The notes under the pieces: generated by a model
What the model saw: the letters and a program-made list of their open reading frames with translations, nothing else
What the model was told of the DNA's origin: nothing
Database searches by the model: none
Part shown: positions 1-2,853 of the stretch, piece after piece
Layout of the letters: every line of letters starts with the position of its first letter
Position numbering within the stretch: the first letter of the stretch is position 1
Made by a program: the position numbers and the translations under genes
Source: a phage
Sequence record: PZ049714.1
Length of the DNA: 2,853 bases
Strand: one strand, 5' to 3'

Positions 1-689
1 TGGTCGACGCCCATGTCCGACAGCGTCGTCAGTTCCTGCGCCAGCTCGATGCCTTCGGCGATGACCTGCGCGCGCGAGGCCCGCGCGATCTTGAGGATCG
101 ACTCGACGAACTCGCGTTTGACCACATCTTGGTGGATGCCGTCGATGAAGTAGCGATCGATCTTCACGTAATCCGGGCGCAGCTCCGACCATAGCCGCAG
201 GCTCGAATAGCCGGCGCCGAGATCGTCGAGGGCGATGCCGAAGCCCATCGCGCGGTAGTGATGCAGGGCCTTGTCCAGCAGTTCGAAATCGTCGGTCGGG
301 GTCTGTTCGGTCAGTTCGATGACCACCTGCCCGGCCGGGATGCCATAGGCATTGAGCAGTTCCAGGGTGCGGCCGGGCTTGTGCGCCGCTTCGAGCAAGG
401 TCTCGGGGGAGGCGTTGAGGAACAGCTTGCCGCGCAATGCGCCTTGGCTGTAGCGGCGGCAGGCGCTGCGCCGGCACGCCATTTCCAGCTCGTTCAGCCG
501 TCCGGCCTGCCGCGCGGTGGCCAGCAGGTTGATCGGCGAATGCAGCGGGCTGTTGGACGGGCCGCGACTCAGCGCTTCGTAACCGAGGATGCGGCGCTCG
601 GAGAGCGAGACGATGGGTTGGAACAGGGTGGTGATGTCGCCTTGAGCAAGGATGTGCCCCAGCATGCTCAACTGCTCGGTGACGGTCAT
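1..689 (-). CDS. EAL-domain cyclic-di-GMP phosphodiesterase, 3'-partial (continues beyond position 1); EAL domain begins ~20 residues from the N-terminus; possibly RapA-like
   Basis: Minus-strand translation from the ATG at 689..687 gives MTVTEQLSMLGHILAQGDITTLFQPIVSLSERRILGYEALSRG...LFLNASPE...VVIELTEQ...ALDDLGAGYSSLRLWSELRPDYVKIDRYFIDG...VIAEGIELAQ..., i.e. the canonical EAL-domain motifs in the correct N-to-C order (EAL, N, E, DDxGxGYSSL, KIDR, AEGIE). There are 229 complete codons with no stop to the window edge. An in-frame TGA lies 18 codons upstream of the ATG with no intervening ATG (one GTG sits inside the hairpin). Weak SD-like GAGA 6 nt upstream of the ATG. An alternative start at Met9 (ATG at 665..663) cannot be excluded. 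Confidence 0.88.
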   Translation of the reverse strand, partial: MTVTEQLSMLGHILAQGDITTLFQPIVSLSERRILGYEALSRGPSNSPLHSPINLLATARQAGRLNELEMACRRSACRRYSQGALRGKLFLNASPETLLEAAHKPGRTLELLNAYGIPAGQVVIELTEQTPTDDFELLDKALHHYRAMGFGIALDDLGAGYSSLRLWSELRPDYVKIDRYFIDGIHQDVVKREFVESILKIARASRAQVIAEGIELAQELTTLSDMGVD

Positions 690-707
690 GGAATTCTCGG
701 GCCGTGA

Positions 708-735
708 ATGAAAAAGGGCCACCGCTGTGGCCCTT
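708..735 (-). terminator. Rho-independent terminator-like hairpin (9-bp stem, 4-nt loop, U-tract) oriented for minus-strand transcription
   Basis: Plus 714-722 aagggccac pairs perfectly with 727-735 gtggccctt, loop 723-726. On the minus-strand RNA this reads AAGGGCCAC-AGCG-GUGGCCCUU followed by UUUCAUU (plus 711-715 is A5). The plus-strand RNA has no U-tract after the stem, so the element is unidirectional. It lies downstream of prc (past the REP doublet) and ~20 nt upstream of the EAL start codon. Confidence 0.6.
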
Positions 736-737
736 CC

Positions 738-771
738 ATTTCACGGTTCGCAGATGTCAGCTTGATGACAG
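738..771 (-). promoter_or_regulatory. Candidate PhoB-dependent promoter: Pho-box-like tandem 7-bp direct repeats (754..771) plus a -10-like hexamer (738..743) upstream of the EAL gene
   Basis: Minus strand reads 5'-CTGTCAT-caag-CTGACAT-3' (plus 771..754), against the Pho box consensus CTGTCAT-N4-CTGTCAY: first repeat 7/7, second 6/7, 11-bp periodicity, but the spacer is not A/T-rich. Exactly 10 bp downstream is TGAAAT (plus 743..738), a 4/6 match to TATAAT. The box sits at the position where a -35 would be, which is the classical Pho-promoter architecture. No convincing sigma70 -35 is present. Confidence 0.4.
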
Positions 772-907
772 GGATGGCGTTTTGCCGGTATTTGCGCCGG
801 TCATAATTGACACCTGCCCTCGCTGTCGGTGGCTATCCCAGGCAGGGTGCCACCGTGGCGCGCTTCGACGCCCCGGCGAGGGCAAATCCCCCCAGCGAAC
901 CGCTTTC

Positions 908-994
908 ATTGTAGGAGCCGGCTTGCCGGCGATCGGCGCTGCGCGTCGCCGCGGATCGCCGGCAAGGACTCGGCGTCCCCCAGGCTCCTACAGG
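908..994. repeat. Inverted REP doublet (REPIN-like extragenic palindrome) in the prc 3' flank
   Basis: Outer 10-bp inverted repeat tgtaggagcc (910-919) / ggctcctaca (983-992); inner 13-bp inverted repeat cttgccggcgatc (922-934) / gatcgccggcaag (954-966); 19-nt GC-rich central spacer. The right arm carries a 16-nt insertion relative to the left. The TGTAGGAGC / GCTCCTACA motif is characteristic of Pseudomonas REP families as I recall them. Confidence 0.5.
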
Positions 995-1115
995 GTGGTG
1001 CGAAAGGCCAATCCGATTTTACGCCCACGGTATTCCTGCTGCGCTCAGGACGCCGTGCCCGTGGTGCGCGGAGCGCACCCTACGCCCGCGTCGCACAGTA
1101 TTTTTGTTGCTCCGC

Positions 1116-2853
1116 CTAGTGCTTGGCCATGGCCGAGCTCAGCCCCAGGTAGTCGAGCAGGATACGGCCGCTCTCGGAGAGGTAGGCGTCGTCTTCCGGC
1201 TTGGGCTTGTCCATTTCCTGGTGCGGCGTGGTTTCCTCTTCCTTCTCCAGCTTGGCCAGCGGTTCCTCGCCCTTGGCCTGGCGCAGGGCGTTCTGCAGCG
1301 CCAGCTGGCGTTTCTCGATATCGGCCTGCTGGGCGCGGCGCTTCTCTTCGTTGAGGCTCACCGTGGTTTCGTGCATCAGCTCCTGCGCCAGGGCCAGGCG
1401 ATCACGGGTGAAGACGAAGTCGGGGTTCTCGCCGGTACGGGCTTCGTGACGTGCCTTCAGCTCGGCCAGGAACGGTTTGAACGGGTTCATGTCCGGGTTG
1501 ATCGCGGCGCGGATGCTGTCCCACGGCAGGGCCTCGGGCAGGGCGCTTTCGCCGATCTCCTTGGTGTCGACGTCGGCGGGGTAGGAAATGTCGGGAATCA
1601 CGCCCTGATGCTGGGTGCTCTGGCCCGAGACGCGGTAGAACTTGGCCAGGGTCAGTTTCAGTTCACCGTGGTTGAGCGGCTGGATGGTCTGCACGGTGCC
1701 CTTGCCGAAGGTCTGGCCGCCGAGGATCAAGCCGCGGTGGTAGTCCTGCATGGCGCCGGCGAAGATCTCCGAGGCGGATGCCGAAAGGCGGTTCACCAGG
1801 ACGGCCAGCGGACCCTTGTAGAAGGCGCCGACCTGCTCGTCGGCCAGCACGTCGACACGGCCATCGCTGTTGCGCACCAGCACCGTGGGGCCCTGGTCGA
1901 TGAACAGGCCGGTCAGCTCGGTGGCCTCCTGCAGGGAGCCGCCGCCGTTGTTGCGCAGGTCGATCACCACGCCATCGACCTTTTCCGCTTCCAGTTCGGA
2001 CAGCAGCTTCTTCACGTCGCGGGTGGTGCTCTTGTAGTTCTGGTCGCCGGCACGCAGCGCCTTGAAGTCGAGGTAGAAGGCCGGGATCTCGATGACGCCG
2101 AGCTTGAAGTTCTGCCCCTGGTGTTCGAGGTTCAGCACCGACTTCTTCGCCGCCTGTTCTTCGAGCTTCACCGCCTCGCGGGTGATGGCGACCACCTTGC
2201 TGTTCTGGTCGTTGGGTGCATTGCTCGCCGGGATCACCTCCAGGCGCACCACCGAGCCCTTCGGCCCGCGGATCAGCTTGACCACTTCGTCCAGGCGCCA
2301 GCCGATGACGTCGACCATTTCGTCGTTGGCCTGGGCCACGCCGATGATCCTGTCCGCCGGCGACAGCTGCTTGCTCTTCTCGGCCGGGCCTGCCGGCACC
2401 AGGCGCACGATCTTGACGTGCTCGTTGTCGCTCTGCAGCACCGCGCCGATGCCTTCCAGCGACAGGCTCATGTTGATGTCGAAGTTTTCCGGCGTTGTCC
2501 GGCGACAGGTACTGGGTGTGCGGGTCGTAGGATTGCGCGAAGGCGTTGATGTAGGTCTGGAACACGTCCTCGCCGCGGGTCTGGTTCAGCCGTGCCAGCT
2601 GGTTCTTGTAGCGCTTGGTCAGCAGTTCCTCGATCGCCTTCGGTTCCTTGCCGGCGATCTTCAGGCGCAGCACCTCGTCCTTCACGCGCTTGCGCCAGAG
2701 GTCGTCGAGCTCGGCGGCGTTCTTGGCCCAGGCGGCTTTCTCGCGATCGACCAGCAGCTCTTCGTCGACGCTGAAGTCGAAGCTGTCGACGCCCTTTTCC
2801 AGCAGGCCCAGCGCGTAGTTGAGGCGGTTCTGCAGGCGTTCCAGATGCCGCTT
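1116..2853 (-). CDS. prc: Tail-specific (C-terminal processing) protease Prc/Tsp, peptidase family S41; 5'-partial (N-terminal ~120 aa lie beyond 2853); reading frame interrupted by an apparent 1-bp insertion near 2479-2482, so a possible pseudogene or a sequencing error
   Basis: Minus-strand translation from 2853 down to ~2480 reads ...FQTYINAFAQSYDPHTQYLSPDNA, matching from memory the E. coli Prc region ...FAREIDPHTNYLSPRN. In the +1 frame, from the ATG at 2471 to the TAG stop at 1116-1118, it reads MSLSLEGIGAVLQ... (E. coli EMSLSLEGIGAVLQ), followed by a PDZ-like segment, IDLRNNGGGS, and the S41 catalytic dyad context RLSASASEIF...GQTFGKGTVQ (Ser codon ~1776-1778, Lys codon ~1701-1703, 25 residues apart as in Prc Ser430/Lys455). 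High GC3 codon usage on the minus strand. Confidence 0.92.

Follow-up and report, generated by a model that had tools for sequence, protein, structure and literature searches.

The BIMEs of E. coli are built from different REP types (Y and Z) and are known to bind IHF, gyrase or Pol I. In pseudomonads, the PF3 class of REPs has the consensus GTAGGAGCyGGCTTGCCrGCGAA (Nunvar et al. 2013, Table 1, PMC3686654), and the PF3 and PF4 classes were assigned to RAYT orthogroup II (Nunvar et al. 2013, PMC3686654). What is known of REPINs and RAYTs provides the basis for the view that single-stranded hairpins are copied in trans (PMC3116915, PMC3686654). Heterodimeric REP doublets, with partners that are unlike in loop length or stem, have been documented in the enterobacterial GTAG-3 and the P. 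aeruginosa GTAG-24 families (PMC3733652). It has been suggested that imperfect pairing shields long palindromes from removal (PMC3733652).

Here we describe a REP doublet at positions 910-992 of the window (the whole stretch of DNA that was analysed, 2,853 nt), between prc and a gene for an EAL/GGDEF protein. With a probability of roughly 0.8, we consider it to be a REPIN-type element that joins a canonical REP to a variant half-REP, belongs to a heterodimeric subfamily of its lineage, would by analogy have been copied by a RAYT, and lies in the 3' UTR of prc.

The doublet is flanked by two genes of the minus strand. Of these, prc, which codes for a tail-specific protease (S41), is present as its 3' part (1116-2853) with a TAG stop codon at 1116-1118, and the EAL/GGDEF gene as its 5' part (1-689) with its ATG at 689-687, leaving a spacer of 426 bp (690-1115). 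In a protein search, the prc product was 97% identical to a carboxy-terminal processing peptidase of Stutzerimonas stutzeri and fell in the same 90% cluster. The product of the EAL gene, as encoded in the metagenome assembly L129, is 598 aa long with EAL and GGDEF domains. Since the DNA identity to the nearest relatives in BLAST is 87-91% for prc and about 80-82% for the EAL gene, the source is a separate Stutzerimonas-like species, of an uncultivated lineage. The same locus is found at about 98% identity in three metagenome assemblies, L129 (GCA_032086435.1), L130 (GCA_032014585.1) and L134 (ERZ1029956). Our comparison within the lineage comprises these three and the window; every sequence of the lineage is a metagenome assembly, and they differ from one another by single-base indels.

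Two features of these assemblies concern the flanking genes. At window 2488-2495, one surplus base breaks the prc frame (the window has GCCGGAAAAC, the relatives GCCGAAAAC). L129 and L130 are without that base but have other flaws nearby, namely an 11-nt insertion at about 2515 and a run of N with a 16-nt gap at 2570-2595. The frame defects in prc are most likely errors of metagenome assembly rather than marks of a pseudogene. Substitutions between the window and L129, L130 and L134 are unevenly spread, with 26 of about 30 in window 1-360, within the EAL gene, and about 4 in the remaining 2.5 kb (361-2853); the cluster may reflect a recombination tract.

The doublet is 83 nt long and its two units are inverted relative to each other. 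Its outer arms, 910-919 (TGTAGGAGCC) and 983-992 (GGCTCCTACA), are exact reverse complements (10/10), as are its inner arms, 922-934 (CTTGCCGGCGATC) and 954-966 (13/13), so the coordinates proposed for both repeats in the first-pass annotation were exact; a repeat search lengthened the inner match to 17 nt (94%). For the 25-mer of the doublet, the number of chance matches expected in the window is 0.

The left unit (910-934, plus strand; GTAGGAGCCGGCTTGCCGGCGAT) has the layout of a canonical GTAG-headed REP, with T, GTAG (911-914), GA, GCCGGC (917-922), TT, GCCGGC (925-930) and the tail GATC, and forms a hairpin of its own (-5.6 kcal/mol). By its sequence, it belongs to the published PF3/PF4 (GTAG-1) class of the Pseudomonas group. 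The loop of the doublet is a 19-nt spacer without a strand (935-953), in which folding predicts a small internal hairpin. Repeat pairing delimits the right, variant unit (954-992, minus strand), whose architecture recurs at L129:10893-10973 and L129:17346-17423. Read on the minus strand, the right unit begins with T, GTAG (991-988) and GAGCC, continues with an extra module and ends with CTTGCCGGCGATC (966-954), which pairs with the left arm. Heads of the form GT(A/G)G, by which REPs are recognised (PMC3686654), are therefore present at 911-914 (plus) and 991-988 (minus). The window carries a canonical GTAG as the right head, whereas L129, L130 and L134 read GT-GG there, with a one-base gap at 989. 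The palindrome GCCGGC-TT-GCCGGC follows directly after the head in the left unit, whereas the 3' half of the right unit covaries with the left arm and not with its own 5' half; the hairpin that the right unit can form by itself is insignificant (z -0.25).

Folded as RNA of the transcribed (minus) strand, the doublet reaches -55.8 kcal/mol (z -4.4), with 0 of 200 shuffles as good. As DNA, the two strands reach -35.6 and -35.9 kcal/mol (z -5.65 and -6.41), each with a single long hairpin predicted, and the hairpin is retained when the whole 3' region is folded (z -5.5). The long bulged stem-loop that had been claimed for either strand is thus borne out, with z from -4.4 to -6.4 over the RNA and DNA folds and no shuffle equal to them. 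The further claim of an inverted REP doublet of the REPIN type agrees with the GTAG heads, the PF3/PF4 left arm, the 19-nt spacer between two inverted REPs and the one hairpin predicted.

Other kinds of element were also considered. An integron attC site was ruled out by the lack of a GTTRRRY core sequence, and a MITE with a target-site duplication was ruled out as 910-992 is without a flanking direct repeat. In Rfam 15, the sole match to the window was a chance one within prc, with an E of 0.14 and 17.5 bits where the gathering score is 60. A Pfam search of three small ORFs overlapping the doublet was empty.

The motif of the left arm is widespread. Its 23-mer occurs exactly in at least 120 stretches from genomes of Pseudomonas, Ectopseudomonas, Stutzerimonas and Phytopseudomonas, often several times per genome. 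As the motif is multi-copy in these genomes, and not single-copy, the reading as a REP and REPIN stands. We took a census of partners for 166 REPs in 120 loci from other genomes, among the matches listed. Heads-outside doublets accounted for 102 of these REPs and heads-inside doublets for 40, and 24 were partnerless by the rules applied; tandem arrays of REPs were also seen among the listed loci. An asymmetric partner with an extra module was found for none of the 166. Given this absence (0/166), the lopsided form is likely a lineage-specific heterodimeric doublet, composed of a full REP and a half-REP with a side hairpin.

The asymmetry of the doublet lies in the distance between outer and inner arms, which is 2 nt on the left (920-921) and 16 nt on the right (967-982). 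These gaps had led the first-pass annotation to describe 16 extra nucleotides in the right unit. The gaps are as claimed, but alignment to a near-identical symmetric doublet, present in L116, describes the right arm better as having 14 added bases (GACTCGGCGTCCCC) and one C-to-A change. The string quoted for the insert was one letter too long, with 17 letters that took in G983. The extra module proper (GACTCGGCGTCCCCCA; 967-982, no strand), as delimited by alignment to the L116 doublet, can fold into a side hairpin of 4 bp (GGAC/GTCC).

The same asymmetric right arm is found in three doublets within 18.4 kb of L129, namely the prc copy (A) and two others, B and C. Copy B (L129:10893-10973) is downstream of the EAL gene, between convergent genes, and L130 and the metagenome contig L133 carry it as well. 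Copy C (L129:17346-17423) adjoins flagellin genes. In BLAST, copy A resembles B and C over window 909-991 only, the similarity ending at both GTAG heads, and the flanks are unrelated. As in a REPIN, the doublet is the unit common to unrelated loci, with similarity stopping at its borders, for three copies of which B and C share about 60 nt more. A scan of metagenomes for the asymmetric arm GGACTNGGCGTCCCCCAGGNTCCTAC yielded a single match, an ortholog of copy B, and a scan of viral contigs with a looser pattern of the arm gave six matches, all by chance and in coding sequence.

Between copies A and B, identity is 20/25 in the left REP, 12/13 in the inner right arm, 15/16 in the extra module (11/16 between A and C) and 8/10 in the right head. 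In the spacer it is 8/19, the same value for copies B and C against A, while the length is kept at 18-19 nt. Accordingly, conservation of the extra module is about equal to that of the REP arms, and the spacer has changed in sequence while keeping its length. Copies A and B differ by a C/G to T/A exchange that preserves pairing between the arms (CTTGCCGGC/GCCGGCAAG in one, CTTGCTGGC/GCCAGCAAG in the other). Copy B, with mutated heads, folds with a z of -3.6, and copy C folds poorly (z -1.7).

Whether the lopsided arm arose by damage at prc can be judged from these copies. If a symmetric REPIN had landed here and had then taken a random insertion of 14-16 nt in its right arm, it would fit that symmetric doublets are the norm elsewhere (102 of the 166 listed REPs, with 0 asymmetric) and that a near-identical symmetric doublet is present in L116. 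However, the same module occupies the same position in two more doublets at unrelated loci of the lineage (15/16 and 11/16 identical), the spacers of which differ. An identical, independent insertion at three sites is not credible, and we regard decay specific to this copy as highly improbable. The lopsided arm appears instead to be a common trait of a small local subfamily rather than damage to the prc copy. Of the two possibilities offered by the first-pass annotation, decay or a distinct variant, the latter is therefore upheld by the module in two more doublets of the lineage, and decay of the prc copy is not.

Copies B and C have about 60 nt in common past the right head (L129:10974-11035 and L129:17424-17485), for 143 nt in total, which the prc copy is without; the shared tail reads GCyCGArAGGCyCTTGCrCTTCTyCCGAGTCGCGGCAAyGCATGGATAA. 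Beside copy B, at L129:10760-10845, is a heads-outside doublet of a third REP class (GTAGGTTGGCGCTGAGCGCAGCGAGGCCCAACA ... TGTTGGGTTTCGTCGCTACGCGCCCCGCCTCAACCTAC). Together the third-class doublet and copy B fill a spacer of 390 bp, at a place where, in the S. stutzeri relatives, two convergent genes overlap by about 34 nt.

The copies might also have spread by segmental duplication, recombination or gene conversion and not through a RAYT, as pieces of a larger cassette that was duplicated or horizontally acquired. The 143 nt shared by B and C, the doublet plus about 60 nt, would fit such a history, as would the arrival of the prc doublet inside, or together with, a block of 347 nt whose sequence is otherwise unique. 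The similarity of A to B and C, however, stops at the heads of the REPs, and the left and right parts of the block are without another copy in the fetched loci or in plasmids. This origin is unlikely. Because copies B and C are degraded and share the 60 extra nucleotides, both decay and some segmental duplication are plausible for the subfamily, and the asymmetric subfamily may be decaying rather than active.

The block in question (771-1117, no strand) is specific to the lineage, with 347 nt here against about 20 nt in the relatives, as judged from the alignment and from the ends of BLAST homology. Homology to eight relatives ends at window 770 and 1118, and their spacer between prc and the EAL gene is 95-99 bp against 426 bp here. 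Besides the 83-nt doublet, the block contains a second-class singlet REP and about 240 nt of structured sequence. No Pfam-recognisable ORF was found in the approximately 240 nt outside the doublet, the non-REP parts (769-909 and 993-1115) matched orthologs alone in a BLAST against all fetched loci, and a plasmid BLAST of 760-1120 gave no match. The singlet REP (1063-1083, minus strand), recognised by reading the sequence, is composed of GTAG (1083-1080), GGTGCGC, TCC and GCGCACC, with a 7-bp hairpin, and lies 32 nt past the prc stop codon. Ectopseudomonas oleovorans has a similar unit, GTAGGGTGCGCCGTGCGCACC (L013:4409).

The doublet is fixed within the lineage, being present in 4 of 4 assemblies. 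In the 22 kb of syntenic DNA from relatives with 87-91% identity in prc, no REP of the PF3/PF4 family was found. No empty site was found for the doublet alone, as the relatives are without the whole 347-nt block and are of different species. From these alignments, the presence or absence of the block appears to be a difference between species. The proposed variability of this spacer accordingly holds for its length between relatives (95-99 and 426 bp); the description as strain-variable does not, given that the four assemblies differ there by single-base indels only. Similarly, the doublet had been taken to make up most of the spacer. It accounts for 83 of the 426 bp (19%), within the lineage-specific block of 347 nt.

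Across the four assemblies, the spacer has three single-base indels (989, 1015 and 1025) and zero substitutions. A special conservation of the spacer was considered and rejected, the substitutions being merely clustered in window 1-360. Since nearly all substitutions between the assemblies fall there, the absence of substitutions in the spacer is no sign of constraint.

Between the block and the EAL gene is an intrinsic terminator, identified by alignment and folding (711-737, minus strand), with the stem-loop GGGCCAC-AGCG-GTGGCCC followed by UUUUU. It is present in all relatives with compensatory changes in the stem, and the RNA folds range from -17 to -24 kcal/mol (z -2.7 to -4.4). The terminator is about 20 nt upstream of the EAL ATG and 175 nt downstream of the doublet. 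Together with a palindrome, TGTCA-N6-TGACA (753-770), it directly precedes the EAL ATG in the lineage and in all relatives. With a terminator so close to its ATG, the EAL gene might depend on transcription reading through from prc. A simple consensus scan of 600-1250 for promoters and terminators gave no match, the 711-737 terminator included. Because the block was inserted between the prc stop codon and this conserved terminator, the doublet is most likely in the 3' UTR of prc and is probably transcribed as part of it. The placement in the prc 3' UTR that was first proposed is thus plausible, with a conserved terminator downstream of the doublet.

It is conceivable that the doublet itself serves as a transcription terminator or an insulator between prc and the EAL gene, being a G+C-rich hairpin between co-directional genes. 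However, the hairpin is followed by no U-run on either strand (AAUGAAAGCGG on the minus, GGGUGGUGCG on the plus), and the terminator scan was empty. A canonical, conserved terminator already exists 175 nt downstream. Because of the missing U-run and the downstream terminator this role is rejected as very unlikely.

Some REPs of E. coli have been described as hairpins that protect mRNA or balance expression. The prc doublet could likewise be an RNA element of this locus, a hairpin retained to shield the prc mRNA from 3' exonucleases or to set the ratio of prc to EAL. The transcribed strand is predicted to form a strong hairpin (-55.8 kcal/mol) that persists when the 3' region is folded as a whole (z -5.5), it is positioned between the stop codon and the conserved terminator, and it shows zero substitutions in four assemblies. 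The last of these points is uninformative, as window 361-2853 has about 4 substitutions overall. The nearest relatives keep the layout of prc, terminator and EAL gene without the doublet, while the 83-nt unit is also present in unrelated contexts, between convergent genes and beside flagellin genes. Moreover, the 123 nt between the doublet and the stop codon exceed the range of the effect that REPs close to a stop codon have on translation in E. coli. Given the relatives of the same layout without the doublet and the unit in unrelated contexts, a stabilising role, suggested by the predicted folds, may exist but is not the preferred explanation of why the doublet is here, and a function tied to this locus seems improbable.

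The reading we prefer, a REPIN-type element with one canonical and one variant unit, would entail the following. Two REP units headed by GTAG would be arranged in inverted orientation with the heads outside. In the right unit, the 5' half of the palindrome would have been replaced or interrupted by the 14-16-nt module, so that by itself this unit is only a half-REP. Both units together would form a single long hairpin, bulged and with a small hairpin at its side. By analogy with described REPINs, the 83-nt unit could have been copied in trans, as single-stranded DNA, to new intergenic sites by a RAYT (HUH/Y1). At prc, the doublet would have become part of the 347 nt that built up ahead of the conserved terminator, after the stop codon, and the 3' UTR of prc would thereby have gained a hairpin of about -56 kcal/mol, any effect of which on mRNA decay would be a by-product.

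No Y1_Tnp was found among the called genes of L129 or L130, and a hunt for a RAYT among REP-flanked ORFs in the fetched loci found ordinary genes and one IS110-like transposase only. The latter is a 320-aa ORF of Pseudomonas laurylsulfativorans (L019:81-1043), situated between PF3-class REPs, with a by-eye resemblance to IS110-family transposases. It recalls IS elements that insert into REPs, such as ISPpu9 (PMC8450116).

A stronger version would hold that this is an active, lineage-specific REPIN subfamily with arms that differ by design, a canonical REP and a half-REP with a conserved side-hairpin module of 14-16 nt. The form might be kept since the resident RAYT needs no more than one full REP hairpin and two GTAG heads, or since the bulge guards the palindrome from hairpin-cleaving nucleases. 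We view this version as doubtful. If true, the subfamily would amount to a natural experiment on how little of a substrate a RAYT transposase requires.

The asymmetric doublet is a variant on a known theme and no new kind of element, and its novelty is minor. As a local heterodimeric doublet, it provides a small data point on how REPIN architecture may drift while still being copied. It also extends the PF3-class REP family, known from fluorescent pseudomonads, to an uncultivated Stutzerimonas-like lineage; in the nearest S. stutzeri relatives the family is absent from the same 22 kb. For annotation, the doublet-bearing block accounts for the long spacer between prc and the EAL gene, and the REP-derived ORFs at 757-909, 829-1119 and 906-1028 should not be called genes. 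Beyond annotation, the importance of the locus is little.

Of the systems described, the closest are the PF3/PF4 classes (PMC3686654) and the GTAG-1 family (Di Nocera et al. 2013, PMC3733652), as the left arm matches PF3 save for its last base. The GTAG head with two further bases after it, the palindrome of 6 bp around a TT loop and the short tail are shared with PF3/PF4, as are the extragenic location and the occurrence mostly in close inverted doublets. Unlike PF3/PF4, whose host is the P. fluorescens complex, the element described here is hosted by a Stutzerimonas-like lineage, and its right arm, which has no palindrome by itself, contains a module of 14-16 nt that is absent from the 166 listed members. 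Like the REPINs of P. fluorescens SBW25 (Bertels and Rainey 2011, PMC3116915), it consists of two inverted REPs with a short spacer and one long hairpin predicted. Here too the doublet rather than the single REP is the unit common to the loci, and neighbouring relatives are without the doublet (PMC3116915). The SBW25 REPINs, however, are near-symmetric (PMC3116915), whereas here one arm is structurally different in every copy seen (n=3). In that respect the element resembles the heterodimeric doublets of GTAG-3 and GTAG-24 (PMC3733652), in which the partners differ as a rule of the family, although the sequence family is a different one.
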